A DNA stretch of 64,000 nucleotides, from contig NC_064039.1 in assembly GCF_932526225.1 (NCBI RefSeq), positions 6,257,459 through 6,321,458 on the forward strand. Reading direction: 5' to 3'. Source of the DNA: Nematostella vectensis. Its lineage: Eukaryota. Shown piece by piece: positions 45,749 to 62,388 of this stretch. The translations under genes and the position numbers were made by a program. Every line of letters begins with the position of its first letter. The stretch's first letter is position 1. Below the pieces are notes generated by a model, which did not search any database, was not told where the DNA came from, and saw only the letters and a program-made list of their open reading frames with translations.

Positions 45749-46255
45749 AGTAGTAGGGTTTTGGCGCAGCTGGCGCAACTTTTTGATCTCCCCAAATTTC
45801 ATTCCAAAAGTGGCGCAAAAGTCTCCGCACACCTCCGCCAAGCCTCGCGACCTGCGCATGCGCGAGTTTGCCAGAGATCTCTCGCACGACCAAGCCCACC
45901 TGTCAATCACTTTGTCACGTGACGGCCACGCCCACCTGTCAATCACTTTGTCACGTGACGGCCACGCCCACCTGTCAATCACTTTGTCACGTGATAGCCA
46001 CGCCCACCTGTCAATCATTTTGTAAAAAACCTGTCAATCACTTTGTCACGTGATGACCACGCCCACCTGTCAATCATTTTGTCAAAAACCTGTCAATCAC
46101 TTTGTCAAAAACCTGTCAATCACTTTGTCAAGAACCTGTCAATCACTTTGTCAAAAACCTGTCAATCACTTTGTCAAGAGCCTGTCAATCATTTTGTCAC
46201 GTGATAGCCAAGCCCACCTGTCAATCACTTTGTCACGTGCTGCACCTAGGGGGAG
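45749..46255 (+). repeat. Left terminal inverted repeat of the Maverick/Polinton element
   Basis: The outer ~150 bp are identical to the reverse complement of 62233..62382. They are followed by 12 copies of a subrepeat with core CCTGTCAATCA(C/T)TTTGTCA, in 36-bp (..GTCACGTGACGGCCACGCCCA..) and 23-bp (..GTCAAAAA..) variants. GCGCATGCGC lies at 45854..45863. Confidence 0.9.
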
Positions 46256-46270
46256 CCTGGGGGCTATTCT

Positions 46271-46281
46271 GGTCTAAAGAC
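46271..46281 (+). promoter_or_regulatory. Degenerate early-type box GGTCTAAAGAC upstream of ORF 46301
   Basis: It lies 20 nt before the ATG and carries one mismatch to GGTTTAAAGAC. Confidence 0.3.
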
Positions 46282-46300
46282 GTATGAGACCCTAGATAAA

Positions 46301-46561
46301 ATGACATTAAAGACGGAGGTGAAGATTAAAAACGGTGCGGCTACCGCCGGCGGTTGTTCGGTGCCGGAGGTGAACGTGAGTAACACTGCGGATGCGGGGC
46401 CTGAACACTGCTGTTGTAACGCTGATTACTATGAAGACTCAGAATACGGAAGCTTCGACCCCGTTGGGTTTGTGGCCGGAGCGGCGACAATTGTCCTTGG
46501 TGTTCTAGCAATGTTAGTCTCCATGCCACGGTATGGCGAAAAAAGATGGGTGAGATACTAG
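46301..46561 (+). CDS. Element ORF: small tail-anchored membrane protein (86 aa), function unknown
   Basis: ATG-initiated ORF just inside the left TIR. It is preceded by the degenerate box GGTCTAAAGAC (46271..46281). It has a C-terminal hydrophobic helix, VGFVAGAATIVLGVLAMLV. Confidence 0.35.
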   Translation: MTLKTEVKIKNGAATAGGCSVPEVNVSNTADAGPEHCCCNADYYEDSEYGSFDPVGFVAGAATIVLGVLAMLVSMPRYGEKRWVRY

Positions 46562-46652
46562 TCCACGGATGTGGTGCGGAGGCTTTAGACCGCACCGCCC
46601 CCACGCGGACCCCTTCGGAAGTCTTAGCAACCACACACATCACACCCAGAGG

Positions 46653-46674
46653 GAGCTCGAGGGGCTAGCCTCTC
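46653..46674 (+). other. Palindromic motif copy GAGCTCGAGGGGCTAGCCTCTC (upstream of the TFIIB-like gene)
   Basis: Non-coding copy, ~30 nt upstream of the early box. Confidence 0.6.
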
Positions 46675-46701
46675 AGCTTCACATCTAAAAAAGCTTTTGA
46701 A

Positions 46702-46716
46702 AAGTGGTTTAAAGAC
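46702..46716 (+). promoter_or_regulatory. Early-type TATA-like box AAGTGGTTTAAAGAC (TFIIB-like gene)
   Basis: TTTAAAG starts 26 nt before the ATG at 46734. It is part of a 46-nt block identical to the PolB upstream region. Confidence 0.6.
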
Positions 46717-46733
46717 ATGAACAGTTTAATAAA

Positions 46734-47660
46734 ATGGAGGAACGAACAGTTGAACGTACGGCTGAAGATCGGTCACCACCACCATATAATATCCTCGGCG
46801 GACCGGTGCCTGAGATTAACGCCCCCACCCTCATGCCGGAATTTGCACTGTTTGACCGAGCCCTCACCGAATACGAGACTAGTAGAGCCTCCTTGGGAGA
46901 CGAGGATAGTAGTAACACCCTTTGCAATCATGGCGACCTAGTCACAGAGGACGGGGTCACTAGTTGCTTAGAGTGCGGGGAACAGATGCAGCGCGTGATC
47001 GCGCACGAAAGGGAATGGGGTTTTTACGGACATTCCGACGGCGAACGGTCTTCGGATCCAAGTCGGGTCCAGGTACGTAGGTCTGAGGATAGAAATATTG
47101 ACAAGGATGTGGAGAACATGGGTTTTAGCGGGGTAATTGTATCCAAAGCTAACGAGATATACACTCAGGTGACGAAAGGCCAGATTTTTCGCGGCGACCC
47201 ACGGAAGGCGGTCGTCTTTGCGTGTATCTACTACGCCTACAAGATGTCCGGTAAGTGTCAGACACCGAAAACCTTGATGGAAACTTTTGGATTGAGCAGG
47301 AAGAGTTGCCTTAAGGGTCTAAAAATCTTTAGTATTAACGTGCCTAAAGATTACTTACTACACGGAACGTCTCCCACCGTCGTGGACCACATTCACGATG
47401 TGATGGATAGATTCTCGGCGTCCCCCGCACAGAAGGGAGAGGTGGTCCAGCTCTACTACAGATCTAAGAACCGCTCGTCTGAGTTGAATCGCGCTCGCCC
47501 ACAATCCTTTGCGGTCGCTTTAACCTATTACTGGGTACGGCTAAAGGGGGTCGATATTACACTTAAAAAATTCTCCGAAAGAACGGGCGTCTCCGAGTTA
47601 ACCATCAGTAGGAAAGCGAGAGAAGTGGCCACAGTCCTGGGTACGCCTGGTGTGGTATGA
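46734..47660 (+). CDS. Element-encoded TFIIB-like transcription initiation factor (zinc ribbon + B-reader-like segment + two cyclin folds)
   Basis: 308 aa. CNHGDLVTEDGVTSCLECG..REWGFY..SDPSRVQ parallels TFIIB CPNHPDAILVED..ICPECG..SEWRTF..KDPSRVG. RGDPRKAVVFACIYYAYKMSG..TLMETFGLSRKSCLKGLKIF parallels the first cyclin repeat ([42 protein letters not shown]). RARPQSFAVALTYYWVRLKGVDITLKKFSERTGVSELTISRKAREV parallels the second ([38 protein letters not shown]). The comparison is from memory of the TFIIB sequence, not a computed alignment. Confidence 0.8.
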   Translation: MEERTVERTAEDRSPPPYNILGGPVPEINAPTLMPEFALFDRALTEYETSRASLGDEDSSNTLCNHGDLVTEDGVTSCLECGEQMQRVIAHEREWGFYGHSDGERSSDPSRVQVRRSEDRNIDKDVENMGFSGVIVSKANEIYTQVTKGQIFRGDPRKAVVFACIYYAYKMSGKCQTPKTLMETFGLSRKSCLKGLKIFSINVPKDYLLHGTSPTVVDHIHDVMDRFSASPAQKGEVVQLYYRSKNRSSELNRARPQSFAVALTYYWVRLKGVDITLKKFSERTGVSELTISRKAREVATVLGTPGVV

Positions 47661-47749
47661 TGTTTCCTGATTTCCAGAGAAATCAGGATTTCCAGAAAAC
47701 TGTCAGTTCGGAGTAGATGTGAATTAACACGTCTAAAGAAATTCGAAAA

Positions 47750-47764
47750 AAGTGGTTTAAAGAC
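47750..47764 (+). promoter_or_regulatory. Early-type TATA-like box AAGTGGTTTAAAGAC (ankyrin gene)
   Basis: TTTAAAG starts 26 nt before the ATG at 47782. Confidence 0.6.
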
Positions 47765-47781
47765 GTGGATGTAATAACAAA

Positions 47782-48606
47782 ATGGATATGCAAAGTGCTG
47801 GAAGTCTTACAAATCTCACCGTGGAGGATCAAGCCGCCACCTTAGCGAGGTGGGGAGCCGCAGACTTTGACGCCGTTATGGAGCGCGCGGCGTGGGAGGG
47901 GTGCGTCGAGACCGTGAGGTTGTGTAAGAGTTGGGGTGCGACGGATTTCGAAAAGCCGATGGTCAGGGCCGCAATGAACGGCCACACCGAGATCGTTAAG
48001 ATGTGTTGTGAGTCGGGCGCCTGTGACTTCGTGTATCCAGCGTCCATGGCCGCGAAAGGCGGGCACGTAGAGGTTTTGAAGGTGATGGGCGAGTATTGTG
48101 CCGACGGAGGAGAGGCCATGACCGAGGCCATGGGTGCTGCGGCGGCGGAAGGTCAGGTGGGGGTTGTTGAGTTGTTGATAGATCTAGGTGTCGATGTCGA
48201 TGTCGGTTGGGCCACCGCTGAGGCGGCGTACAATGGGCACGTTGAGGTTCTGAAGCTGCTGAGAGAAAACTTCTGGGAGTTTGACCCGGACTATGCTATA
48301 ACACCAGCCATCGAATCTCGCAACCTCGAGATTGTGAGGTTGTGCTTGGAGTGGGGCGCGACCGATCTCATTGTACATATGAACTACGCACGGTTTTGGC
48401 ATCTGCATAAGATTTTCGCGGTGCTACGTGCGGCGTGGGGGTGGAGTCTTGTGCATGAGGAGCTCCCGGAGAAGCTACACAAGGTGAGATTCCGTAGAAA
48501 GCTGGAGGACGAACTAATGCCAGTAGCTTGGCATCCGGACAGGTTTTGGGATTGGTGCATGGATGAGCAAGAGAAGGAAATGTTGGGAGAATGCTTCGCC
48601 AGGTAG
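47782..48606 (+). CDS. Element ORF: ankyrin-repeat protein with a Trp/Cys-rich C-terminal tail
   Basis: 274 aa with about 6 repeats bearing the ankyrin signature: AAWEGCVETVRLC, AAMNGHTEIVKMC, AAKGGHVEVLKVM, AAAEGQVGVVELL, AAYNGHVEVLKLL, ESRNLEIVRLCLEWGA. The tail is VAWHPDRFWDWCMDEQEKE. The early-type box lies at 47750..47764. Confidence 0.75.
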   Translation: MDMQSAGSLTNLTVEDQAATLARWGAADFDAVMERAAWEGCVETVRLCKSWGATDFEKPMVRAAMNGHTEIVKMCCESGACDFVYPASMAAKGGHVEVLKVMGEYCADGGEAMTEAMGAAAAEGQVGVVELLIDLGVDVDVGWATAEAAYNGHVEVLKLLRENFWEFDPDYAITPAIESRNLEIVRLCLEWGATDLIVHMNYARFWHLHKIFAVLRAAWGWSLVHEELPEKLHKVRFRRKLEDELMPVAWHPDRFWDWCMDEQEKEMLGECFAR

Positions 48607-48647
48607 ACGCCGACCGGCTAGAAGGCGGGTATCGCGTGTTGGATTGA

Positions 48648-48663
48648 AAAGTGATTTAAGGAC
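48648..48663 (+). promoter_or_regulatory. Early-type box AAAGTGATTTAAGGAC (zinc-ribbon gene)
   Basis: It directly abuts the ATG at 48664 and lies 27 nt before the second ATG at 48682. Confidence 0.55.
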
Positions 48664-49011
48664 ATGACCGGTTTGATAGAAATGGAGAACCAAACGGTGA
48701 AAGACTCGAAAGTATCCCCCGTAAAGCGAACAACGGATTATAAGTGTCTTCATGGCAGAGTGAAATATTATTGCAAAGATTGTCACGGATCGCAAATCTG
48801 CCCTCACAACCGGAGAAAAACGCGGTGCAGAGAATGTAACGGCGGTAGCATTTGTGAGCACAGACGAGCAAGATATGTCTGTAAAGACTGCAAGGGGAAA
48901 GGGATGTGTGAACACAGCAAACAGAGACCCTTTTGTAAGTTATGCGGAGGGTCTCAAATATGCGAACACGATAGACAAAAGCACCATTGCAGAACGTGTA
49001 ACGGAAATTAA
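48664..49011 (+). CDS. Element ORF: tandem Cys/His zinc-ribbon repeat protein (putative nucleic-acid binding)
   Basis: 115 aa with four tandem units of C-x-H-x(4-6)-C-x2-C-x-G-x3: CLHGRVKYYCKDCHGSQI / CPHNRRKTRCRECNGGSI / CEHRRARYVCKDCKGKGM / CEHSKQRPFCKLCGGSQI / CEHDRQKHHCRTCNG. It shares the N-terminal MTGLIEMEN and the promoter with the PolB gene. The functional start may be the second ATG at 48682. Confidence 0.6.
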   Translation: MTGLIEMENQTVKDSKVSPVKRTTDYKCLHGRVKYYCKDCHGSQICPHNRRKTRCRECNGGSICEHRRARYVCKDCKGKGMCEHSKQRPFCKLCGGSQICEHDRQKHHCRTCNGN

Positions 49012-49026
49012 CATTGACCCACTCAG

Positions 49027-49053
49027 TTTTGTAACGCGTCTCACGTTACAAAA
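49027..49053. terminator. Perfect 10-bp stem hairpin at the convergence point of the plus and minus gene blocks
   Basis: TTTTGTAACG-cgtctca-CGTTACAAAA, 16 nt after the stop codon of the zinc-ribbon gene. A role in 3' end formation is speculative. Confidence 0.3.
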
Positions 49054-49208
49054 CACATACATTCCTAATCACCCTAACAACTAGCGATTCTGAAAATAGG
49101 TTTTGTATTTACATTGAGAGTTCGCGGTCGCCAGGGTGGTCTGGTATGCACGTGAACAGGTATTGTCTTCTTGCGGTACGTCACATCCGTCCACATGCAC
49201 CCCGCATG

Positions 49209-50735
49209 TTACCGGAATAGATACCAAGCTAAACCAGCCGTAAAGGCTGTGATCGTGACAAGGTTATTTTCGTGCTGCGTGTTCGTGGGTTTAATCACGT
49301 CCGGCTTTGGGTTAGTTTTCGCCTCCGGTTCCGGTTTGTGAGCCGTGACTGACTCGGTATGAGGTAACACAATCTTTGAATGACCCATATTATGTTTAGG
49401 GATCGTTTTTATCTCGTTATTTATCGGATTCAGCCCCAGTTTCATATCAGTGGTGGCTTTTTGTAACTTGTTATTATAGCCAGCGATCGAAGTGTTGTTA
49501 TTTATCACAAGATACGATGGACTTAACCAACAGCCGAGGGCGAAAGCTAGGTCTAGTTTTTGTCTCGCCTGTTGTAAAGCAAACTGATACCGTTGTATAC
49601 TTTTCGATATACTGTTTTCCACCACCGCGCTTTCGAAGAGTTTCGTGAAGACCTGTTTCGTTTCCTGAGCTGAACCGCTATCGCCGACGATTGACGACCG
49701 GGTCTGAACTTGCGCGCCTAGAATACAGTAGACAAAGGCTTCGATGCTCTGGTTTATCCTAGACAACCCAGCTTTGGTTAACCCCATTGATTTTTCCGGA
49801 AAGAACCACTCATACTGAAACCCAGTTCTAAGGTCTTTCAGGTACTCGATCTCAAAGTGATTCATGTGTTCGTGGTCGCTTTTGGCAGCGTCCCATTCGT
49901 CGTGTAATTGATCAATGGTGCCATAAGGCTTATACTTGTCGTTAGAAGATGACAAGCCGTGATAATCATAATTATAAACGTTCCCTAACCCGTGATTTAT
50001 CGGTCTGAGGAACCGGAAATCGTCACCAGTTCGGAATTCTGTTCTTAGTTTTTGGTAAGCCGCTTCGCTGTAAAAGTTTTTATTCCAACTAAAGAGCCTA
50101 TCTTTTGGAAGAGGGCATTGTAGCTCGTTTAATATTCGTCTGATAGTGAAAATGATGTGAAATCTGTAGAATGACCCCACTTGAGAGTCGTCAATCATGT
50201 CACGCGTCACACCACATCCAGCAGTCGCGCAAAACATAGCAAAATTTAAGGCTTGACTCCAATAACTGAGGTTTGGGGCGTCGAGCCACCTACTAGCCTC
50301 CTTTGCTGTTCTGAATACTAGCAAGCTGTCGGTGAATATGTCCCTAAAAACAAAGTGTGTCTTCACCTTTGGTGTTATAAAAACATTAAAAGAGACGTAA
50401 TTATTTCTCGTAGGGTTTTCGTCCCACGGCAATATCTTGTACTCTGCACGCGCGTCTAGTCTGTATTGTTTTGGGAACCCAAACAGTTGCTGGATCGTTT
50501 CCTTGTATGCTTGTGTGTCGTCGGCGACTAGAAAATCCTGGATATTCTCGGGTTTCCAGCTATTACCAGGGAAGTGATATAACGTTTTGACTAGATTCCC
50601 ATTCTTGTCGAATGGATCGTATTCGTCCCCATTGAAAACGAATTGCACATTGCCGTGCCCGTCGGCAGAGAACCTGAAGCGTGAGTAGTAGGGGTACCTT
50701 TTCACAAATTCTGTAAACTTCATCTTATATGACAT
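49209..50735 (-). CDS. Element ORF: 508-aa protein of unknown function with a C-terminal transmembrane anchor
   Basis: Long uninterrupted ATG ORF in the minus-strand gene block. The box GATTTAAAAAC lies upstream at 50743..50755. The C-terminus NLVTITAFTAGLAWYLFR is hydrophobic. I recognise no family motif. Confidence 0.6.
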   Translation of the reverse strand: MSYKMKFTEFVKRYPYYSRFRFSADGHGNVQFVFNGDEYDPFDKNGNLVKTLYHFPGNSWKPENIQDFLVADDTQAYKETIQQLFGFPKQYRLDARAEYKILPWDENPTRNNYVSFNVFITPKVKTHFVFRDIFTDSLLVFRTAKEASRWLDAPNLSYWSQALNFAMFCATAGCGVTRDMIDDSQVGSFYRFHIIFTIRRILNELQCPLPKDRLFSWNKNFYSEAAYQKLRTEFRTGDDFRFLRPINHGLGNVYNYDYHGLSSSNDKYKPYGTIDQLHDEWDAAKSDHEHMNHFEIEYLKDLRTGFQYEWFFPEKSMGLTKAGLSRINQSIEAFVYCILGAQVQTRSSIVGDSGSAQETKQVFTKLFESAVVENSISKSIQRYQFALQQARQKLDLAFALGCWLSPSYLVINNNTSIAGYNNKLQKATTDMKLGLNPINNEIKTIPKHNMGHSKIVLPHTESVTAHKPEPEAKTNPKPDVIKPTNTQHENNLVTITAFTAGLAWYLFR

Positions 50736-50742
50736 ATAAGAT

Positions 50743-50755
50743 GTTTTTAAATCAG
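50743..50755 (-). promoter_or_regulatory. Variant box CTGATTTAAAAAC (ORF 49209..50735)
   Basis: It lies 9 nt before the first ATG at 50735 and ~21 nt before the second ATG (MSYKM). Confidence 0.4.
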
Positions 50756-50813
50756 TCCTTTACGCATCTCAATTCATAGATCCATCCGACGGGAGTTCTC
50801 TCGTACAGAAATT

Positions 50814-51419
50814 TCACCGAGCGGGTCGACTCGCCAGGTCTTTCAAAATCTCTTCTCTTACTGTTTCCCTCAGCTTGGTAATGTTTACGTTTTTTTCGTC
50901 CTCTCTTACCGACTTTTGACGGATCTGGAGCTTTAGAGCCTCAAACTTGTCCACCTCGTTCAAGATTAAAGAGAACTCTTCGTCTGATATTTTGTTGTCT
51001 TTTAAAGCTTTAGAGACCAGGTCGCGTATGCTATTTACTTTTGCCTTTGCCATCGCCGCTGTTTGGTCGTGCTTGGAGACTTTTTGCGACAGCCGTTTAG
51101 AAACCGCCGCACAGCCTACAGACGTAAGACCGAAAACACCGGCCAAAGCACCCAACGGAACTCCGACGACGATACCAAAACCTGACAGAGAAGTCCCCAA
51201 ACCACTAGACCCAAGAATGACGGATAAGAGTCCTAAGACCACACTTAACTTTGAAAACACGCTCTGCCCTCGTTTATACTTTTTCCTCACGTTCTCGTAA
51301 TGTTTAACTTCTTGCTCCAAACTTCCCAAAACATCGTGGGTCTTTTGGAGTCTGAAGTTATCACCCGAGGGGCTGACCCCTCGGGGTACGTTCGGGTAGA
51401 TTGAGTTGTACTCTTCCAT
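50814..51419 (-). CDS. Element ORF: two-pass glycine-zipper membrane protein with a C-terminal coiled coil (201 aa)
   Basis: Central segment LSVVLGLLSVILGSSGLGTSLSGFGIVVGVPLGALAGVFGLTSVGCAAV, followed by a charged helical tail. The box CACTTAAAGAA lies upstream at 51442..51455. Confidence 0.6.
   Translation of the reverse strand: MEEYNSIYPNVPRGVSPSGDNFRLQKTHDVLGSLEQEVKHYENVRKKYKRGQSVFSKLSVVLGLLSVILGSSGLGTSLSGFGIVVGVPLGALAGVFGLTSVGCAAVSKRLSQKVSKHDQTAAMAKAKVNSIRDLVSKALKDNKISDEEFSLILNEVDKFEALKLQIRQKSVREDEKNVNITKLRETVREEILKDLASRPAR
51366..51384 (-). other. Related palindrome CCGAGGGGTCAGCCCCTCG inside ORF 50814..51419
   Basis: It shares the GAGGGG-N-CCCCTC arms with the other copies and encodes PRGVSPS. 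Confidence 0.4.
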
Positions 51420-51441
51420 AGCTTTATTATGGGGAGAATTT

Positions 51442-51455
51442 ATTCTTTAAGTGAT
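51442..51455 (-). promoter_or_regulatory. Variant box ATCACTTAAAGAAT (ORF 50814..51419)
   Basis: It lies ~25 nt before the ATG at 51419 and overlaps the stop codon of the penton candidate. Confidence 0.45.
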
Positions 51456-52070
51456 TTCTAAAATTAGACGTATCGGGTAGAGACCGCGCTCTATTGTGTT
51501 TCCGTCACCACCCTTTATACTAAGACGGAGACTACTCACGTAACCGACTGATGTGGTGCTAACCCGTACCGGATCGCTTGGATTGAGGTATATCTTTCCT
51601 TCATCAAGCTCTACACTTGCTAGGATTTGTGAGGGCGCCCCTTGTTGGAGGGAGTCAGACGCGTTCACAAGATCGCAGTGGATAAAAATAGCCTCGTGAC
51701 CTATCATCTTTATCTCGTGGCGAGTGTTTGCTTCCAGCTCCCTGGTCTTGAGTCCTAACAGGCAGGCGAGCGGCTCATTCAACGCGACGTTCCGGTGAAC
51801 TTCGAGTGACGAGTCTCTAATAGAGACTGACTTTTCACCAAGACGCATACCCCCATCTATTTGACGTTTTAGCGTCTCGATCGTATACTGCCCCGCGGGG
51901 ATCCTAAGGATAATGTTCTCACCGTCGGAGACCGTTCCCTCGCTTGAGAGACTGTTACAACGATTATGAAACGCACATCCTCGCAGCGCGATAAACCGCG
52001 GCTTTTCAATAGGTTGTTCTAAATAGACAGTAAAGTCACCAACGTTTCCTTCAATGTAGAGTAATACCAT
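51447..52070 (-). CDS. Element ORF: candidate minor capsid (penton, single jelly-roll) protein, 207 aa
   Basis: The size, beta-rich composition and position within the morphogenesis block fit a Polinton minor capsid protein. The motif AIFIHCDLV..S resembles penton-like proteins I recall from invertebrate Polintons. No structure prediction was possible here. Confidence 0.45.
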   Translation of the reverse strand: MVLLYIEGNVGDFTVYLEQPIEKPRFIALRGCAFHNRCNSLSSEGTVSDGENIILRIPAGQYTIETLKRQIDGGMRLGEKSVSIRDSSLEVHRNVALNEPLACLLGLKTRELEANTRHEIKMIGHEAIFIHCDLVNASDSLQQGAPSQILASVELDEGKIYLNPSDPVRVSTTSVGYVSSLRLSIKGGDGNTIERGLYPIRLILEIT

Positions 52071-52073
52071 TTG

Positions 52074-53096
52074 TTATGATTTCCGTCTCCTTTTAAATCG
52101 TTCTACGGAATACAGGACGACAGCGACGATGAGAAGCCATGCGTTTTTAGCTAAAAAGCCAACAACTTCACCTGCCGTTCTAAATATGAAACTAGCTATA
52201 GCACCAACCATTCCTGGGAGTATTTCTCCTAATTTTTTGCCTATTGTTTTCAGACCATTTCCAACACCTTTTGCAACACTAGTCAGCCCAGCTTTCAGAT
52301 TAGAGACAATAACACCGATAACAACGCCCACAGCGGTAACGACAGCAGCGACTGTAAATCCGTATTTCTTAAAAATCGCTTTGACACGATCTTTCAACGA
52401 CATTCTCTCTTCAAGATTTTCTCTCTCCAATTGATTCTCTTCCAAAGTCTCATCTATGACAGAATTTCTTTCGCTGAGCTCTTCATTTTTACGATCTATA
52501 GCTCTTAGTCTTTCTTGGTTAGTTGTTTCACTTCGTTCCTCATTATTTTTTCTCATTTGCTCGGTGTTTCTCTCTTCTTCTTCTCTGAGTGTATTACCTG
52601 TAGCGTCTAGTTCATCGAGTTGAATCTGAATTTGCTTGTACTTTCCGGATCTGATTTTGTCGTCAACACTCTTCCGCACCGTTCTATCCTCATTATACAA
52701 CCTTTCTGGTCTAGTCCAACCACCTTTTCTCGCAGAATAGAAGGAAATGAATTGTTTTCCTCTCTCATCCGTTGAAATCTGAACTAGATTTTCATCAAGA
52801 TCTGGATATTTCGATAACAAAAGGTCTACCCTAAGTGTGTCCGTTGAAGGAGAACCTCCCATATTCTGTAACTCCATGTACTCGGGGACAGCCCTCCCGG
52901 GGTTTCGTGTTTTCCATAAGTCAGTCAACCTCCTACTCACATAGCTTGCACCTCTACCAAATCTGTTTGAAATCCTTTCATTCCATGATTCTCTTCCCTC
53001 ACCATCGTTTGGAATAAGAGAGTCATAATCTTCGTCTACAGTAGTATTCAAATCTTCTCTACCTTCTTCTGTTGTGGGATCAAAATCTATATCCAT
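52074..53096 (-). CDS. Element ORF: coiled-coil protein with C-terminal multi-helix glycine-rich membrane domain (340 aa)
   Basis: A central E/R/N-rich heptad-like region (LREEEERNTEQMRKNNEERSETTNQERLRAIDRKNEELSERN) is followed by FTVAAVVTAVGVVIGVIV, ILPGMVGAIASFIF and AWLLIVAVVLY. The box GACTTAAAGATT lies upstream at 53121..53133. Confidence 0.6.
   Translation of the reverse strand: MDIDFDPTTEEGREDLNTTVDEDYDSLIPNDGEGRESWNERISNRFGRGASYVSRRLTDLWKTRNPGRAVPEYMELQNMGGSPSTDTLRVDLLLSKYPDLDENLVQISTDERGKQFISFYSARKGGWTRPERLYNEDRTVRKSVDDKIRSGKYKQIQIQLDELDATGNTLREEEERNTEQMRKNNEERSETTNQERLRAIDRKNEELSERNSVIDETLEENQLERENLEERMSLKDRVKAIFKKYGFTVAAVVTAVGVVIGVIVSNLKAGLTSVAKGVGNGLKTIGKKLGEILPGMVGAIASFIFRTAGEVVGFLAKNAWLLIVAVVLYSVERFKRRRKS
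52089..52100 (-). promoter_or_regulatory. Variant box CGATTTAAAAGG (penton candidate), inside the 3' coding end of the upstream gene
   Basis: It lies ~20-25 nt before the ATG at 52070 and is encoded within ..ERFKRRRKS* of ORF 52074..53096. Confidence 0.4.
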
Positions 53097-53120
53097 TTCT
53101 TATTTTGTTTGAAAATAAGA

Positions 53121-53133
53121 AATCTTTAAGTCG
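53121..53133 (-). promoter_or_regulatory. Late-type box CGACTTAAAGATT (ORF 52074..53096)
   Basis: It lies 34 nt before the ATG at 53096. Confidence 0.5.
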
Positions 53134-53140
53134 TGCCAGC

Positions 53141-53557
53141 TCATATCCACCTACTCGCTACATAGCCAAGGGCTAACATTCCACCTCCAACGTACGCCAT
53201 CTCTCCCATCTTTTGGTTGCTACTTGGTCTGTAGTAATCTGAGAGCTCAGGCTCTTTCAAATCAAAATCTGGATGTGTTTGAGCGTATAGTTTGAAAGCC
53301 TCATCCGTCTCTTTATCGTTCTCATCCGCACGAACTTTATCGTTGTATTGTTCAGTCAACCAATCCTGGTATTCCTGTCTTTTTTTCTGCCAATCACCCA
53401 TTGCTTGTTGATACTTTTCAAGCGCTTTATCGTGTCTTATTTTTTCTTTATCAACATGAGTAGCGTCAGAAGACAAGTATCTCGCTAGGTAACTCCCTCC
53501 GACAAACGCCGTCGCATTAATAAAAGCCCCACCAATCATAAATGCTATACTCGCCAT
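53141..53557 (-). CDS. Element ORF: small membrane protein (138 aa; N- and C-terminal hydrophobic helices)
   Basis: MASIAFMIGGAFINATAFVGGSYLA at the N-terminus and MAYVGGGMLALGYVASRWI at the C-terminus. The box GACTTAAAGATC lies upstream at 53575..53588. Confidence 0.55.
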   Translation of the reverse strand: MASIAFMIGGAFINATAFVGGSYLARYLSSDATHVDKEKIRHDKALEKYQQAMGDWQKKRQEYQDWLTEQYNDKVRADENDKETDEAFKLYAQTHPDFDLKEPELSDYYRPSSNQKMGEMAYVGGGMLALGYVASRWI

Positions 53558-53574
53558 TTATTAATCAATCTATA

Positions 53575-53588
53575 AGATCTTTAAGTCG
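53575..53588 (-). promoter_or_regulatory. Late-type box CGACTTAAAGATCT (ORF 53141..53557)
   Basis: It lies 28 nt before the ATG at 53557. Confidence 0.5.
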
Positions 53589-53589
53589 C

Positions 53590-53814
53590 CTACAGCGGTT
53601 TTGGCAAAATCTTTTGTGTTTCCAGATAATCTTTCAGATACATACTACCGGACAGGACAGCAACCCATTTAGCGTAGTTTGTAACACTTGACGAAGGGTC
53701 GCTGATGAATGACTCTTTCATAGCCTTTTTAGCAACATAACCCACGCCGGCGGCTAATCCGATGATGACTGCTGAGTCGGTGATCGTTTTCACAAGTTTG
53801 TTTTCAGTTGACAT
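53590..53814 (-). CDS. Element ORF: small membrane protein (74 aa)
   Basis: Hydrophobic segments AVIIGLAAGVGYVA and WVAVLSGSMYL. The perfect late-type box GTGATTTAAAGATT lies upstream at 53840..53853. Confidence 0.5.
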   Translation of the reverse strand: MSTENKLVKTITDSAVIIGLAAGVGYVAKKAMKESFISDPSSSVTNYAKWVAVLSGSMYLKDYLETQKILPKPL

Positions 53815-53839
53815 GATTTTATTTATTACAGATTCAGAT

Positions 53840-53853
53840 AATCTTTAAATCAC
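53840..53853 (-). promoter_or_regulatory. Late-type box GTGATTTAAAGATT (ORF 53590..53814)
   Basis: It lies 35 nt before the ATG at 53814. The 14-mer is identical to the one at 54335..54348. Confidence 0.55.
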
Positions 53854-54311
53854 AACATTCCTATTTTTGGCGTCGCGTTCGGGAGGCTAGCCCCTCGAGC
53901 TCCCCCTAGGTGGGAGGTGGGTCTCCCAAGAGTTTCGGCCTCGTTGACGTTAATCTTAGACGGCTCGCCCTCTTTCTTTTTGTAAAAACGCATATACATA
54001 TCCAATGCGGTGAGCCCTATTCCAACTAGAGCCAGTACAGTTGTAAACGATAGCTCTGGAATCCAAGCGTCCGAGAGGCTATCCCCTCGAGCTCCCTCTT
54101 GGTGGGGTGTCTCTGCTCGTGCAGCGTCTTCTGAACTCGCCTCCGCCTCGCGTTTCATCTCCCTAGCAAGTGCTTCTCTACACCTCCTATTATATTCGGC
54201 AACTCTCTTACCAGAAGCGACTTTTATAGGATCTTTCTCCTTAGCGGCACTCTTCTTCCTGGGGGGAGGGTCCTTTGTGATTTGCTCAACCTCTTGATTT
54301 TCGTCAGACAT
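53850..54311 (-). CDS. Element ORF: basic N-terminus plus single-TM protein (153 aa)
   Basis: K/R-rich N-terminus (PPRKKSAAKEKDPIKVASGKRVAEYNRRCREALAREMKRE), then a TM helix LSFTTVLALVGIGLTALDMYM. It contains two in-frame copies of the palindromic motif. The box GTGATTTAAAGATT lies upstream at 54335..54348. Confidence 0.55.
   Translation of the reverse strand: MSDENQEVEQITKDPPPRKKSAAKEKDPIKVASGKRVAEYNRRCREALAREMKREAEASSEDAARAETPHQEGARGDSLSDAWIPELSFTTVLALVGIGLTALDMYMRFYKKKEGEPSKINVNEAETLGRPTSHLGGARGASLPNATPKIGML
53883..53902 (-). other. Palindromic motif copy inside ORF 53850..54311
   Basis: The reverse complement reads GAGCTCGAGGGGCTAGCCTC, encoding GARGASL. It lies ~35 nt upstream of the late box for ORF 53590..53814. 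Confidence 0.6.
54075..54094 (-). other. Palindromic motif copy inside ORF 53850..54311
   Basis: The reverse complement reads GAGCTCGAGGGGATAGCCTC, encoding GARGDSL in the same codon phase as the copy at 53883. Confidence 0.55.
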
Positions 54312-54334
54312 GATTCTTTACTCACTGAATAAAG

Positions 54335-54348
54335 AATCTTTAAATCAC
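54335..54348 (-). promoter_or_regulatory. Late-type box GTGATTTAAAGATT (ORF 53850..54311)
   Basis: It lies 33 nt before the ATG at 54311. Confidence 0.55.
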
Positions 54349-54352
54349 ATCA

Positions 54353-54488
54353 TGCTCAAGAGCTTGCTCAGTTGTGCTCAAGAGCTTGCTCAGGTGTGCT
54401 CAAGAGCTTGCTTAGGTGTGCTCAGGTGTGCTCAAGAGTTTGCTTAGGTGTGCTCAGGTGTGCTCAAGAGTTTGCTCAGTTGTGCTTG
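54353..54488. repeat. Intra-element 22-bp minisatellite (GTGCTCAAGAGCTTGCTCAGGT, with 10-bp short variants), ~6 copies
   Basis: It lies in the spacer between ORF 53850..54311 and ORF 54454..54981 and extends into the last ~10 codons of the latter. Confidence 0.8.
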
Positions 54489-54981
54489 AAACTTCTTGAA
54501 GTTTGTTGGAAGTCTCCTGTGAAGGTGTTAGTTTAACATGCTTAGCGACCCGAAAGATGGCACTAGCAAGTGCTACCATCCTTCCTCCCTTCAATACCAA
54601 GAGACCTGCAAAGTTTGACAATTCGCGTTTAACCAACTCGTCGTTCTGTAAGTCTTTGCTAAGCGCTTCGGTGTCATCTACAGGAACCACGTAGGAAATG
54701 ACTTGAGACACCACTTGAAGTGCTGATTCTACTAATCCATCAGTAACTTGTTTGCCTAAGACAGTCTGGTAGCGAACAAAGTACTTTTCGACGTCTTTCG
54801 CCGGGAGCTTCTTGATGTCCCCTAAACTCATGTCCACACCAAGAAATTCCTTCGTAGTCCCAAGAGATGCGAGAATAGCCAGCGATTCTCGTTTGACTTC
54901 AACATCGTCTTCGAGAGGCTCACCCTTCGAGCTCCCCTTAGACTTAGGCTCCTCTTCCATATAATCCTCAATGCTTGCCAT
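54454..54981 (-). CDS. Element ORF: 175-aa acidic/helical protein, function unknown
   Basis: The ORF track starts at 55047. However, the early-type box AAGTGGTTTAAAAAC (55006..55020) lies inside that extension, 33 nt before the ATG at 54981 (MASIEDYMEEE..). I therefore take 54981 as the start. The protein contains no Cys, so it is not a cysteine protease. Confidence 0.55.
   Translation of the reverse strand: MASIEDYMEEEPKSKGSSKGEPLEDDVEVKRESLAILASLGTTKEFLGVDMSLGDIKKLPAKDVEKYFVRYQTVLGKQVTDGLVESALQVVSQVISYVVPVDDTEALSKDLQNDELVKRELSNFAGLLVLKGGRMVALASAIFRVAKHVKLTPSQETSNKLQEVSSTTEQTLEHT
54915..54934 (-). other. Palindromic motif copy inside ORF 54454..54981
   Basis: The reverse complement reads GAGCTCGAAGGGTGAGCCTC, encoding SSKGEPL in the same codon phase. 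Confidence 0.5.
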
Positions 54982-55005
54982 CTTATTTTGTAAGTAGACC
55001 AAGAT

Positions 55006-55020
55006 GTTTTTAAACCACTT
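55006..55020 (-). promoter_or_regulatory. Early-type box AAGTGGTTTAAAAAC (ORF 54454..54981)
   Basis: It lies 33 nt before the ATG at 54981 and directly follows a palindromic-motif copy. Confidence 0.5.
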
Positions 55021-55021
55021 C

Positions 55022-55043
55022 GAGGGGTCAGCCCCTCGAGCTC
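55022..55043 (-). other. Palindromic motif copy abutting the early box of ORF 54454..54981
   Basis: The reverse complement reads GAGCTCGAGGGGCTGACCCCTC, immediately followed by GAAGTGGTTTAAAAAC. Confidence 0.55.
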
Positions 55044-55670
55044 TCACCGCGTGGCAGGAATCTCCAAATAACGTTGGAATGGATGTCGTAGGCAGAAACA
55101 GAGTCTGGAATACTTTTCAGTTTTCAGCAGTTCTACAAACTTTTTACGAGTCTCAACGTCTAAGTCACCCCCATAATCTTCAAACAGTGTTTTGGTACCG
55201 ATTTGAGATGGATTATGGAATGTAACCACACAGGCGACGTTATCACGGAAGGGCTTTGCTATGGATGTTAATTGTTGCGTCAATACCCACACTGATAATC
55301 CTTCGTGTCTCCCTGAGAACGCTAAATTGATAAACTTGTTCGAGCGTTGCTTTAGATCTTTCGATACAGCACAGTCATCCAAAACGAGTAACGTATTTGT
55401 ACCAGAAAATAGCACCGCACAATCTGTTAGTAACTCGTTAATCTCATCGGTGTTACTAGCATCCGGCGATAATACCAAGAAACGTTTATCTCCGTGAGCA
55501 AATCTACGATAGGACTTGTTTTTCGCATAAGTCGGACAAATCAACACAATGTATTCAAACACATGCCGGAACGGCCCTCGGAGCTGTTCCGTGAGGTACT
55601 TTGTCTTCCCACAATTAGTAGGTCCTGTGATAATACAATGAAAAGGAACTTTTTCCCGTAATTCTTCCAT
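55044..55670 (-). CDS. FtsK/HerA-type DNA-packaging ATPase
   Basis: Walker A is IITGPTNCGKT and Walker B is LLVLDDCA. The size (~208 aa) and position next to the capsid gene are typical of Polinton and PRD1-adenovirus-lineage packaging ATPases. The ORF-track start at 55691 is a TTG; the first ATG is at 55670 (MEELREK), ~25 nt downstream of the box TATTAAAAAGGAC. Confidence 0.85.
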   Translation of the reverse strand: MEELREKVPFHCIITGPTNCGKTKYLTEQLRGPFRHVFEYIVLICPTYAKNKSYRRFAHGDKRFLVLSPDASNTDEINELLTDCAVLFSGTNTLLVLDDCAVSKDLKQRSNKFINLAFSGRHEGLSVWVLTQQLTSIAKPFRDNVACVVTFHNPSQIGTKTLFEDYGGDLDVETRKKFVELLKTEKYSRLCFCLRHPFQRYLEIPATR

Positions 55671-55691
55671 TCTTTTTGTATTATCACACAA

Positions 55692-55705
55692 GTCCTTTTT
55701 AATAC
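55692..55705 (-). promoter_or_regulatory. Variant box GTATTAAAAAGGAC (ATPase gene), overlapping the MCP stop codon
   Basis: It lies ~25 nt before the ATG at 55670. The MCP TAA stop codon is embedded in the box. Confidence 0.45.
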
Positions 55706-56937
55706 ATGATTGCTCTCAAATTCGAGTTCATAACCTCCATCAACGCGTCGGCTACTACAAACATGTAGCAGGTGATGTTTCCCGTTCCTCCAACTTTTCG
55801 TTTCATCTCGAGTTTTACTCCGTCTCGCGTGTTGTTCAAGACCAGACCTCCTCCGTGAATGCTGTTATCTGGGTGTGCCCTCAAGTCGACCCACAGAGCA
55901 AACTTGTTATTAGCGTAAAAATCCTTTTGCTTGACACCCTCTCTACCGAAACGTTTCTTTACCGACTCCCAGAGGTCCGGCGGTGTCATCCCCTTGGAGT
56001 AGAGACGGTTTGGCATGCCATCCACATTAATGTTGATCGATGTGATGCTTGGATTGACAAACTTTTCGGAATCCCTTGCTCCTCCGGTGTAGCTCTCTGT
56101 GAACAGGCACAATATCCCTGTCATTGACCTCCTCGGCAGATTAATGTGCTCGTTTATGACACCATCATTAGGTTTGGAGATGGTGAACGTTTTGTGGAGA
56201 ATGACGTTCTCGTAAAAGAATCCTCTACCAACCTGATAAGCCGACAACGCCTCACGAGCTAAGTATTCACTTGAGATGCAAGCATATTCCAACTCGAGGT
56301 TTGTGATTGTGTACGTTGGAGTCTTGACCGTGTCAGCATAAACAACGACGTCGGAAACTGGGGCTAGAGTAATTTCAAAGATTAGCGGATGAGGTAACGC
56401 CTTTGGATAAAAGACCCCATGCTCGCCGAGAATAGGATGGTCGAGTGGAATGCAGTACTTGGTGTTGTGAACTGCTGCAAGAGCTACTTCCTTAGCATCT
56501 GATGTCGCTTTGTCACCTGCATTTGTCCTGAGCTTCCTCATGTTCTCAGAGGAGATACCTTGTTTTATTCTATCCTCACGATCTTCAGCTTGTAAGTATA
56601 AGTCGTGATAGGTTTGGAAGAGATCGTATCTTTGAGTATCCTGTAGTGTTTCTCCACCGAAAAGAATCTTGAGCCTTGACACTAGGTTCCGGCCAACGTT
56701 GTTGACGAGAGTATTATTCGCGTGTCCTGTGACGTTTAAGTCAAATAGTAAGGATACACTACCTGGAACAATCACTACATTTTCAGCAAGTTTTGGAATA
56801 TTTATATAGAGGGTTTCTCCAGGACTTGCCGATGAGGGATTGAATGTAATCCGATTCAGCGACGATTCCGCTTTCAGGCCGAAGGGTTCCCGTGGGATCC
56901 TGTTTGGGTTAATTTTTTCTGATATCGCTTGTGCCAT
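55699..56937 (-). CDS. Candidate major capsid protein (double jelly-roll expected), 412 aa
   Basis: Its position is immediately upstream of the packaging ATPase. It carries a late-type box, and its size and beta-rich composition fit. No other ORF in the element is a better MCP candidate. The fold was not verified. Confidence 0.55.
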   Translation of the reverse strand: MAQAISEKINPNRIPREPFGLKAESSLNRITFNPSSASPGETLYINIPKLAENVVIVPGSVSLLFDLNVTGHANNTLVNNVGRNLVSRLKILFGGETLQDTQRYDLFQTYHDLYLQAEDREDRIKQGISSENMRKLRTNAGDKATSDAKEVALAAVHNTKYCIPLDHPILGEHGVFYPKALPHPLIFEITLAPVSDVVVYADTVKTPTYTITNLELEYACISSEYLAREALSAYQVGRGFFYENVILHKTFTISKPNDGVINEHINLPRRSMTGILCLFTESYTGGARDSEKFVNPSITSININVDGMPNRLYSKGMTPPDLWESVKKRFGREGVKQKDFYANNKFALWVDLRAHPDNSIHGGGLVLNNTRDGVKLEMKRKVGGTGNITCYMFVVADALMEVMNSNLRAIMY

Positions 56938-56961
56938 CTTTTATTTTAAGAAAAGAGAGAT

Positions 56962-56975
56962 AATCTTTAAATGAG
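56962..56975 (-). promoter_or_regulatory. Late-type box CTCATTTAAAGATT (MCP gene), overlapping the integrase start codon
   Basis: It lies 34 nt before the MCP ATG at 56937. The palindromic TTTAAA core sits in the 33-bp divergent MCP/integrase spacer. Confidence 0.55.
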
Positions 56976-57963
56976 TAACGAAAGCAGGTTATCAAAAATA
57001 TACTATTCCACCGATGGATACTGGAAAGGGTATTCAGCTATTTATAAGTTAGCTAGTGTCGCTAAAGTCAGTGAAGCCGAGGCTAAGAGGTGGCTTGAAA
57101 AACAGGCGTTGTGGCAGATCTATCTCCCAGCTCCAAAGTATGTCCCCAGACCGCATTGGACTGTGAATAAACCTAATCAGATTCACCAAGCCGATCTGTT
57201 GTTTATGCCCCACGATAACGTAGGCAGAAAAACCTACCGTTACGCGTTGGTCGTGATTGATATTGCCTCGAGATATAAAGATGCAGAAGCACTGACTACC
57301 AAGGATTCGAGTGGAATTGCTAAAGGGTTTGAAAAGATATACTCCAGAAAACTTAAATGGCCTCATACGGTGATTGTCGATCCGGGGACAGAATTTAGGG
57401 GAGAGGTAACGAAGATTATGAAAAAGAAGGGGGTTACCATCCAGCGAAGCGAAGCTGGGAACCATCGCGCACAGGCTTTTGTCGAACGCGCCAATAGAAC
57501 ACTGGCGGAGAGGTTGTTTTCTTATCAGTATGCTCAAGAAATGATTAGCGATGATCGGTCCAGAGTTTGGGTGAAACGATTGCCAGATGTTTTGAAGACT
57601 CTGAATAGTCAACCCATAAGAATTACTGGCAAAGAGCCTGTAAAATCTATTGGTTTGAAAGAGGTTGATATTGACCCTCCAACGTATAAGCGGCCTGTTG
57701 GACTTGACGAAGTTAGACTACCACCAGGGGTTAGAGTTAGATATCTATTAGCTCCTGGAGAAGAGGAAGGAGGTGAACGCAGACGAGCCACAGACCCCAT
57801 TTGGAGTTTGAAAGTGTTTGATCTATCACGCAGTGTTGTTTCGGTTGGGCAGCCTGTGTTGTACTACCTCTCCGAAGGCGCTCCAAGGAGGTCGTTCGTT
57901 AGGGAAGAACTTCAAGTCGTCCCTGAAGATACTGAGCCACCACCTAATAGCGTTCTGAAATGA
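56971..57963 (+). CDS. Retroviral-type (rve) DDE integrase
   Basis: The catalytic-core pattern is HQADLLFMP..(D), VIVDPGTEFRG (D), AQAFVERANRTLAERL (E), with typical spacing. The C-terminal beta-rich tail (VLYYLSEGAPRRSFVREELQVV) looks chromo/SH3-like. Confidence 0.9.
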   Translation: MSNESRLSKIYYSTDGYWKGYSAIYKLASVAKVSEAEAKRWLEKQALWQIYLPAPKYVPRPHWTVNKPNQIHQADLLFMPHDNVGRKTYRYALVVIDIASRYKDAEALTTKDSSGIAKGFEKIYSRKLKWPHTVIVDPGTEFRGEVTKIMKKKGVTIQRSEAGNHRAQAFVERANRTLAERLFSYQYAQEMISDDRSRVWVKRLPDVLKTLNSQPIRITGKEPVKSIGLKEVDIDPPTYKRPVGLDEVRLPPGVRVRYLLAPGEEEGGERRRATDPIWSLKVFDLSRSVVSVGQPVLYYLSEGAPRRSFVREELQVVPEDTEPPPNSVLK

Positions 57964-61838: not shown

Positions 61839-61853
61839 GTCTTTAAACCACTT
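61839..61853 (-). promoter_or_regulatory. Early-type TATA-like box AAGTGGTTTAAAGAC (PolB gene)
   Basis: It abuts the ATG at 61838 and lies 27 nt before the second ATG at 61820. Confidence 0.6.
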
Positions 61854-61881
61854 TTCAAAAGCTTTTTTAGATGTGAAGCTT

Positions 61882-61902
61882 AGAGGCTAGCCTCCCGAGC
61901 TC
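61882..61902 (-). other. Palindromic motif copy (upstream of PolB, at the inner TIR edge)
   Basis: The reverse complement reads GAGCTCGGGAGGCTAGCCTCT and contains the perfect 12-bp palindrome GAGGCTAGCCTC. Confidence 0.6.
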
Positions 61903-62382
61903 CCCCTAGGTGCGACACGTGACAAAGTGATTGACAGGTGGGCTTGACTATCACGTGACAAAGTGATTGACAGGTTCTTGACAAAATGATTGACAGGTTC
62001 TTGACAAAATGATTGACAGGTTTTTTACAAAGTGATTGACAGGTGGGCGTGGCTATCACATGACAAAGTGATTGACAGGTTTTTGACAAAGTGATTGACA
62101 GGTGGGCTTGGCCGTCACGTGACAAAGTGATTGACAGGTTTTTTACAAAGTGATTGACAGGTGGGCTTGGCTATCACGTGACAAAGTGATTGACAGGTGG
62201 GCTTGGCTATCACGTGACAAAATGATTGACAGGTGGGCTTGGTCGTGCGAGAGATCTCTGGCAAACTCGCGCATGCGCAGGTCGCGAGGCTTGGCGGAGG
62301 TGTGCGGAGACTTTTGCGCCACTTTTGGAATGAAATTTGGGGAGATCAAAAAGTTGCGCCAGCTGCGCCAAAACCCTACTAC
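61899..62382 (-). repeat. Right terminal inverted repeat of the Maverick/Polinton element
   Basis: Reverse complement of the left TIR, with 11 subrepeat copies in a slightly different order. GCGCATGCGC lies at 62269..62278. The base at 62383 is ambiguous between TIR and TSD. Confidence 0.9.
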
Positions 62383-62388
62383 TCCCTC
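62383..62388. repeat. Target-site duplication, right copy (TCCCTC)
   Basis: See the left copy. If 62383 is counted as TIR instead, the TSD is the 5-bp CCCTC. Confidence 0.75.

Follow-up and report, generated by a model that had tools for sequence, protein, structure and literature searches.

A putative TFIIB-family initiation factor of giant-virus ancestry in an intact Polinton/Maverick element of Nematostella vectensis

Does a mobile element of an animal genome carry its own general transcription initiation factor and, if so, where did it come from and which RNA polymerase would it serve? The question is raised by a stretch of 64,000 nucleotides from the cnidarian Nematostella vectensis (contig NC_064039.1, forward-strand positions 6,257,459 to 6,321,458), hereafter referred to as the window, which contains an integrated Polinton/Maverick element. 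Within this element an open reading frame (ORF) of 308 amino acids runs from ATG to TGA on the plus strand at positions 46734-47660, and the original prediction, made from the letters alone, had read it as a TFIIB homologue that may serve a private RNA polymerase II (Pol II) initiation system. We examined the ORF by Pfam and phmmer searches, family alignment, AlphaFold2 (AF2) modelling and Foldseek comparison, and found that it encodes a bona fide TFIIB-family protein. Comparison with its relatives and with the other copies in the genome showed it to be a putatively functional, selectively maintained initiation factor, resident in an intact element.

The Pfam search returned the TFIIB repeat PF00382 on residues 121-199 with an E-value of 1.5e-8 and a score of 35 bits, against a cut-off of 23.6, while phmmer on the PDB sequences matched human TFIIB over residues 122-296, corresponding to both cyclin repeats, with an E-value of 1.8e-5. 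A second phmmer stretch paired CNH...CLECGE...EREWGFY...SDPSRVQ with the human zinc ribbon and reader, weakly, with 5 bits on the reader. The ribbon had been described as CNH and CLEC separated by 14 residues; its four ligands C64, H66, C78 and C81 (46923-46976) were indeed invariant in a 44-sequence alignment, and the AF2 model has three short strands in this region, but the spacing is C-x-H-x11-C-x2-C, with 11 residues between the histidine and the following cysteine. The Pfam family Zn_Ribbon_TF gave no match in the 308-residue protein. Residues 91-131 (47004-47126) form a B-reader/B-linker-like segment, in which the proposed correspondence between REWGFY..SDPSRVQ and human SEWRTF..KDPSRVG was recovered by phmmer; weak when taken alone, it falls in one of the most conserved parts of the family, with 74-89% identity within the viral family. 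The segment was modelled with low pLDDT when alone, as is expected of a region that becomes ordered only on the polymerase.

Two cyclin-fold repeats, also recognised originally, occupy residues 132-215 and 216-303 (47127-47642) and were found by Pfam, phmmer, AF2 and Foldseek alike. The AF2 model, calculated from 44 homologues, showed a mean pLDDT of 74.9 and consisted of strands at residues 69-72, 75-78 and 84-87 followed by two helical bundles. The 37 best Foldseek matches of the model in the PDB were all chains of archaeal TFB, TFIIB or Brf, and the predicted core superposed on the TFB/TFIIB-TBP-DNA complexes 1ais, 1c9b and 1vol. Binding to TBP-DNA and recruitment of a multisubunit RNA polymerase represent the predicted family function of the ORF product.

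The carrier was delimited by end alignment, flanks, inverted repeats and gene content as a complete Polinton/Maverick of 16,635 bp (45749-62383), with termini AGTAGTAGGG... and ...CCCTACTACT, i.e. AG...CT, and a CCCTC(A) target-site duplication. Terminal inverted repeats (TIRs) of about 500 bp occur at 45749-46261, largely made of 23/36/59-bp tandem units (ACCTGTCAATCACTTTGTCACGTG...), and at 61894-62383, with tandem units as in the left repeat. The TFIIB gene lies between the TIRs and within the target-site duplication and is therefore encoded inside the element, as had been claimed. The DNA polymerase (PolB) of 1308 amino acids, protein-primed and of family B (57912-61838, minus strand), gave no Pfam polymerase match and nothing in the PDB phmmer search, so that its identity rests on the exonuclease and polymerase motifs read in the translation (YADFES, NLSGYDSHLF, YLDANNLYG, KLMNNSVFGKT and TDTDS for Exo I/II and Pol A/B/C); with its counterpart at the related locus L007 it shares 75% identity. 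A retroviral-type (rve) integrase (56971-57963, plus strand) matched PF00665 with 32.6 bits, exactly at the cut-off, and an A32-type packaging ATPase (55044-55691, minus strand) matched PF04665 (Pox_A32) with an E-value of 3.7e-11. The major capsid protein (MCP; 55699-56937, minus strand) showed a Capsid_N match of 17 bits, under the cut-off of 24, and 755 homologues, some of them with PF16903; hundreds of these relatives are 60-95% identical and lie on Mb-scale contigs as large as those of eukaryotes, and an MCP scan of IMG/VR gave no match.

The origin of the TFIIB gene was then assessed from its nearest relatives. The best protein match is a RefSeq entry, [quoted passage not shown], with 96% identity; past the Nematostella copies (83-96% identity) the matches fall to 70% or less, and all those remaining are metagenomic. 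The element TFIIB shows 57-70% identity to TFIIBs on giant-virus contigs, compared with 27% to human TFIIB. The relative contigs that were opened are AT-rich, reach several hundred kb and represent giant-virus genomes, as judged by gene content and by their names as giant-virus metagenome-assembled genomes (GVMAGs). Their genes include those for Rpb2 (in one case with an intein), Rpb5, Rpb10, P9_TM, a protein associated with the capsid, thymidine kinase and NIF phosphatase, the last directly upstream of TFIIB in three independent giant-virus loci. The order of the NIF (CTD-phosphatase-like) gene and TFIIB was noted at L001, L004/L005, L010 and the GVMAG loci L014-L035. Scanning IMG/VR brought up 80 loci that were 34-67% identical, many of them labelled GVMAG and none with Polinton genes, and an exhaustive search placed the size of the TFIIB family at 1046 clusters at 50% identity.

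The original prediction had proposed a phylogeny as the means of distinguishing host capture from a viral lineage. Neighbour-joining trees on Kimura distances were rooted on human TFIIB, in a sequence that agrees with the fragments in the PDB phmmer alignment. The six Nematostella sequences formed a clade with 100% bootstrap. A node with 88% support united this clade with 16 sequences of giant viruses, and the clade of giant viruses next to these was excluded at 96%; the element TFIIB therefore nests among giant-virus sequences. The tree nesting, the identities and the genomic context of the relatives all indicate a transfer from giant virus to Polinton, and we conclude from these comparisons that the gene was in all probability acquired from a giant virus of the nucleocytoplasmic large DNA virus group and not from the host. 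In BFVD no cultured representative of the donor group was found: the TFIIBs of cultured giant viruses are only 15-25% identical to that of the element, the best match being Marseillevirus TFIIB with 24%. In the giant-virus loci, occurrences of TTTAAA peak between -20 and -29 relative to the ATGs and those of AAATTGA between -40 and -49, which suggests two promoter classes in this uncultured clade. The AAATTGA enrichment 40-49 nt upstream of genes hints at a donor within the Imitervirales.

The captured gene appears to have been long resident in the element and maintained there. The GC content at third codon positions (GC3) is 0.565 for TFIIB and 0.567 for PolB, while the viral homologues range from 0.17 to 0.41; as the gene matches the element and not its viral homologues, the transfer was not recent. 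The N. vectensis copies fall into one 90% cluster, with at least 33 distinct sequences, and four further clusters that are more divergent, and are spread over many chromosomes. Twenty copies were aligned, all of 307-308 amino acids and 82-100% mutually identical, and selection was judged from their amino-acid substitution pattern in place of dN/dS. Variation among copies affected 21% of the family-conserved columns versus 42% of the variable ones (Fisher p 0.003) and was inversely related to conservation (Spearman rho -0.21, p 5e-4), a pattern which indicates the outcome expected under purifying selection. The fixed differences are mostly conservative and several are K to R changes, as expected since GC rose. 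In the reader/linker, Polinton and viral clades share 74% identity and the viral clades share 80% with each other; when each region was compared in turn, the Polinton protein resembled the viral clades as closely as these resemble one another, and no change-of-partner signal was detected.

The 5' end of the gene carries the mark of its carrier. The promoter and first codons of TFIIB (46640-46754, plus strand) are an inverted, 83%-identical copy of 115 bp of the PolB promoter and 5' end (61801-61915), recognised as an inverted repeat and in a four-way upstream alignment of the TFIIB, PolB, ankyrin and CxxC genes. Methionine 1 of TFIIB corresponds to methionine 7 of PolB. A Nematostella-specific N-terminal extension of residues 1-33 (46734-46832) contains PPPY and GPVPEINAPTL and is absent from the giant-virus homologues in the alignment; its second motif matches PolB GPIPEINVPIL (aa 76-88) at both the protein and the DNA level. 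These correspondences show that the captured gene was re-equipped with a promoter and first codons duplicated from PolB of the element, and that the extension derives from PolB 5' coding sequence. The shared peptide GP(V/I)PEIN(A/V)P(T/I)L, at 46734-46832 in TFIIB and 61565-61610 (aa 76-90) in PolB, may be a docking or targeting motif, and PPPY is of the WW-binding type.

A survey of other Polintons, which the original prediction had suggested, revealed a second TFIIB-like lineage, strongly diverged, that it had missed. A tblastn search with the element proteins gave a faint TFIIB match in L007, between PolB and integrase; the encoded protein had no Pfam or PDB sequence match, and profile comparison by hhalign linked it to the first family with a probability of 97.9% and an E-value of 6e-13. 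A hidden Markov model built from the second lineage scored the TFIIBs of giant viruses at about 1e-39 and the human protein at 8e-5. Its AF2 model (pLDDT 72.6) had TFIIB, TFB and Brf as first matches, with a target-normalised TM-score of up to 0.73 against TBP-bound cores. Homologues 46-87% identical adjoin Polinton genes in 12 loci (L007, L012, L013, L098, L099, L104, L105, L107 and L110-L113), at varying positions, one of which is beside p508 at the element end, as for TFIIB in the window. The related Polintons L006 and L008, with MCPs 83-85% identical, fell outside this comparison, as L006 ends early and L008 is rearranged.

The nearest non-Polinton relatives of the second lineage are, by their gene context, probable giant-virus proteins: P0465, 53% identical, lies on a 40-kb contig with PCNA and a superfamily II helicase, and a GVMAG of 196 kb encodes a 41%-identical relative. 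The second lineage and its viral relatives formed a clade with 100% bootstrap, and 99 of 100 replicates kept it apart from the first lineage. As each of the two lineages has giant-virus relatives of its own, at least two TFIIB exchanges between this Polinton clade and giant viruses are indicated. In L007 the ORF at 7265-8068 ends in ...RTLSGGNSVSSGTT, the C-terminal tail of the window PolB (FRTLLGGGSVSSGTT), so the second-lineage gene seems to have been inserted there into the PolB 3' end; the L007 contig has a coverage of about 1x and an apparent frameshift near the ribbon.

The element-wide TATA-like boxes of the original prediction proved to be real. TTAAAGA occurs 12 times in the element, and eight of these occurrences lie upstream of an ORF ATG, at a distance of 25-33 nt and in the sense orientation (binomial p 2e-12). 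Taking the likely true ATGs, variants with one mismatch precede p508, p207, the 115-residue CxxC-repeat gene (CxxC115), the ATPase gene and p197, and the integrase and capsid genes share one palindromic box. That of the TFIIB gene, TTTAAAGA, lies at 46708-46715, 26 nt upstream of the ATG; the ankyrin and CxxC-repeat genes have a GTGGTTTAAAGAC-type promoter like that of TFIIB, and similar boxes were found at about -30 in the related Polintons L006 and L012. The element contains no copy of AAAATTGA, the early motif of mimivirus. Among the giant-virus loci that carry the closest TFIIBs, the frequency of TTTAAA is highest 20-29 nt upstream of the ATGs (81 of 515 genes); the resemblance to the position of the Polinton box is suggestive, but these genomes are AT-rich.

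At the 3' end, a perfect 10-bp hairpin occurs 4 nt past the TFIIB stop codon (47665-47688; z = -2.8) with no AATAAA after it. Other perfect hairpins follow the stop codons of CxxC115 (49026-49054), p138 (53108-53136, minus strand) and the ATPase gene (55017-55036, minus strand), the four together having z from -1.8 to -4.5. They recall the hairpin-defined 3' ends of giant viruses and are not universal in the element; a mimivirus-like hairpin rule for its 3' ends was rejected, being significant in only 3-4 of 14 genes, TFIIB among them.

On balance, and by a small measure, we regard as probable that this factor directs element-specific initiation at TTAAAGA-type boxes with host Pol II as the default polymerase. 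A TATA-like box of this type, about 25-35 nt before the ATG of each element gene, would be recognised as a complex with TBP by the two cyclin folds; the zinc ribbon, reader and linker would then recruit and position a multisubunit RNA polymerase, and transcripts would start just before each ATG. The element would thereby have an initiation factor private to it and suited to its promoters. Were its cycle nuclear and free of a helper, both Pol II and TBP would come from the host, while the PolB-type promoter would place TFIIB in the early/replication class, its product then boosting all element promoters. The recurrence of a second TFIIB-like lineage in related elements suggests that a TFIIB function is useful to such elements. 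Host Pol II is favoured by the tens of germline insertions, by an element that encodes no polymerase and by the lack of a known helper.

Several observations weigh against this scheme. The relatives of the protein sit in genomes with their own RNA polymerase, and since its ribbon, reader and linker match the viral proteins as well as the viral clades match each other, there is no sign of adaptation to Pol II. Pfam identified neither TBP nor RNA polymerase subunit genes among the element proteins, and the helix-turn-helix residue aligned by phmmer to human R286, which we take to be a contact of the TFIIB recognition element (BRE), is not conserved. If the box is a TATA box, a spacing of only 25-35 nt to the ATG would leave almost no 5' untranslated region, which is unusual for metazoan Pol II mRNAs, and 12 of the 14 element genes have no AATAAA or ATTAAA within 100 nt past the stop. 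In addition, at least one related Polinton, L009, has no TFIIB in the 20 kb examined, so the gene is not indispensable for the clade. Of the private Pol II system originally envisaged, a TFIIB factor accompanied by uniform boxes stands, whereas the assignment to Pol II is one that we infer, and the relatives of the factor adjoin virus-encoded polymerase genes. Because the polymerase-facing segments show no re-adaptation, the partner could equally be the enzyme of a co-infecting giant virus.

That alternative would resemble the strategy of virophages: within the viral factory the Polinton TFIIB would divert the RNA polymerase of the giant virus to TTAAAGA promoters, boosting the element and possibly harming the virus. 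We judge it rather doubtful. In its favour, the protein nests in giant-virus TFIIBs, whose ribbon, reader and linker it retains, and two TFIIB lineages with giant-virus relatives would imply repeated physical contact. The position of the TTTAAA peak resembles that of the box, but a peak in AT-rich viral intergenic DNA is weak; short leaders, scarce AATAAA and hairpins past some stops recall giant-virus and virophage genes, but the hairpins are significant in few of them. Precedents exist in helper-matched promoters of virophages and Polinton-like viruses (PLVs) and in the giant-virus factor VLTF3 of polintoviruses. On the other hand, no cnidarian giant virus turned up in the literature, in which no search aimed at that question was made; the tens of germline copies show nuclear germline integration with no evident helper, and the fully ameliorated composition means that the contact may be ancient. 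A broader version, which we hold to be unlikely, is that cnidarian-type Polintons are or were virophage-like partners of animal giant viruses and repeatedly captured TFIIB to steer the viral polymerase to their TTAAAGA promoters. Were this true, the Nematostella germline copies would form a reservoir against giant viruses, integrated and inducible, as mavirus does in Cafeteria.

It is quite improbable that the protein acts as an interference factor, a decoy that titrates TBP or polymerase, whether from the host or from a rival virus, or that the gene is a neutral passenger. Accessory genes at Polinton ends do vary, the stretch of L009 that was seen has no TFIIB, and in the window TFIIB shares its cassette with ankyrin and CxxC genes, typical host-interaction cargo. 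Against this, the substitution pattern indicates purifying selection, all copies seen are full length, every functional module is kept, including the polymerase-contacting ribbon, reader and linker, the gene was given a PolB promoter, and a TFIIB-like gene was gained independently in relatives. Finally, a retrocopy of host TFIIB, a scenario raised by the original prediction itself, or an endogenous giant-virus fragment merely adjoining a Polinton is hardly tenable: the RefSeq label "transcription initiation factor IIB-like" on the N. vectensis copies and the giant-virus genes as closest relatives could suggest it, but it is refuted by the 27% identity to human TFIIB set against 57-70% to giant-virus proteins, the enclosure by TIRs and target-site duplication, the promoter copied from PolB, the GC3 and the absence of other giant-virus genes from the element by Pfam.

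As for the remaining features of the element, the accessory cassette comprises, besides TFIIB, an ankyrin-repeat gene (47782-48606, plus strand) with a GTGGTTTAAAGAC promoter and CxxC115 (48664-49011, plus strand), whose promoter and first codons (MTGLIEMEN) are a further copy of the PolB 5' end, as seen in repeat I16 and the alignment. The C-terminal motif VAWHPDRFWDWCMDE of the ankyrin gene, which belongs to no Pfam family, recurs in the related Polinton L007 at 12002-12115 with 55% identity over 38 amino acids, and the ankyrin protein gave one weak match only against IMG/VR. CxxC115 is built of C-x2-C-x-G-x3-C-x-H units and has homologues in L009 (8359-8571), L098 and L113; in related Polintons such homologues sometimes adjoin the second-lineage TFIIB. 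Between the left TIR and TFIIB, a small unannotated ORF of 86 amino acids (46301-46561, plus strand) has a predicted transmembrane helix. The unit arrays of the TIRs at 45886-46199 and 61956-62242 contain ACCTGTCAATCA and the palindrome CACGTG, which may serve as sites bound by the terminal protein, by the integrase or by a factor of the bHLH type.

On the minus strand, a cluster of morphogenesis or unknown genes (p508, p201, p207, p340, p138, p153 and p197; 49209-55047), each preceded by a TTAAAGA-type box, is common to related Polintons with the exception of p207, the sole element gene without a homologue there. For the seven unknown ORFs, lowering the Pfam thresholds to permissive values yielded no credible match, nor was there any for p197, p207 or the other small ORFs when an adenain-like cysteine protease and a penton were sought. 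From its sequence pattern p207 is a presumptive penton protein; its candidacy as a TBP was rejected, since the sequence is penton-like and carries no TBP signal. An unannotated ORF of about 85 amino acids with its own TTTAAAGA box follows p153 (53558-53849, minus strand), and a tandem repeat of 22/32/54-bp units (TGCTCAAGAGCTTGCTCAGGTG) lies at 54353-54486, between p197 and p153 and upstream of the p153 box. PolB contains an Endonuclease VII/HNH-like insert at aa 587-630 (59946-60080; PF02945, 26 bits) and a Rho_N/SAP-like domain at its N-terminus. The host genes of the window lie upstream of the element, at 8509-9006, 12945-13397, 17231-18664 and 24210-24740, and include two CUB-domain exons, an apparently intronless UMP synthase ORF of 477 amino acids and a major vault protein exon.

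Compared with known systems, the element factor stands nearest to giant-virus TFIIB, which is recognised as a core and marker gene of the Nucleocytoviricota and used in metagenomics; UniRef A0A6C0J1R7 is an example among the GVMAG proteins. It belongs to the same clade, with 57-70% identity, and shares with these proteins the Cx1H...CxxC ribbon, the reader/linker and both cyclin folds over about 275 amino acids, to which the element adds its extension. It differs in its carrier, an integrating Polinton of 16.6 kb without RNA polymerase or TBP genes, and in the 33-residue extension, the PolB-derived promoter and a GC3 of 0.57 versus 0.17-0.41. Cellular TFIIB, TFB and Brf share the domain order of zinc ribbon, putative reader/linker and two cyclin folds; unlike them, the element protein has C-x-H instead of C-x2-C/H as first ligand pair, shows about 27% identity to the human factor, is multi-copy and transposon-borne and does not conserve the HTH residue at the position of the human BRE arginine.

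Among small viruses of the Polinton type, polintoviruses, including those of corals, and PLVs are reported to carry the giant-virus factor VLTF3, which has been read as gene exchange between the groups (PMC11131425; bioRxiv 10.64898/2026.06.19.733378). VLTF3 is likewise a giant-virus-type transcription factor but belongs to an unrelated family, whereas TFIIB is a general initiation factor bridging promoter and polymerase. In mavirus and endogenous mavirus-like elements (EMALEs), CroV-like late promoters are described as matched to the machinery of the helper giant virus (bioRxiv 10.1101/2025.10.09.676808). These too are small, integrating, Polinton-related elements in which a uniform short motif near each ATG sets the machinery; they rely on helper factors and are not reported to carry a TFIIB, whereas the element described here supplies its own factor and has no known helper. 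In ciliates, a specialised host TFIIB paralogue is reported to serve transposon transcription (PMC12082453). This paralogue is likewise a dedicated TFIIB-family member transcribing mobile-element DNA; it is host-encoded and serves silencing, while the Polinton factor is element-encoded and of putative viral origin.

TFIIB had been placed outside the canonical Polinton gene set, and accordingly we found no paper listing it as a Polinton or Maverick gene. The literature covered did not report it as a gene of Polintons, Mavericks, polintoviruses, adintoviruses or virophages; the term "unreported" is provisional, since coverage did not extend to Repbase or to many subscription papers. The expectation of something undescribed held for TFIIB, for which no report was found, but not for a giant-virus transcription factor in such viruses as a class, VLTF3 having already been reported in polintoviruses (PMC11131425). 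What is new is a metazoan Polinton family stably carrying a giant-virus TFIIB, with relatives bearing a second lineage and with a uniform promoter box.

The prevailing view is that Polintons and Mavericks rely entirely on transcription by the host, and what ties them to giant viruses and virophages has been mostly a matter of evolutionary inference. The TFIIB lineages described here point to a previously unreported link between animal Polintons and giant viruses. For genome annotation, the "TFIIB-like" genes of N. vectensis in RefSeq are viral cargo and not host paralogues, and a Polinton-borne TFIIB could be mis-scored as a giant-virus signal in animal genomes. The finding also makes the question experimentally tractable in a laboratory model animal, in terms of the polymerase that is recruited, the timing of element expression and the existence of cnidarian giant viruses.

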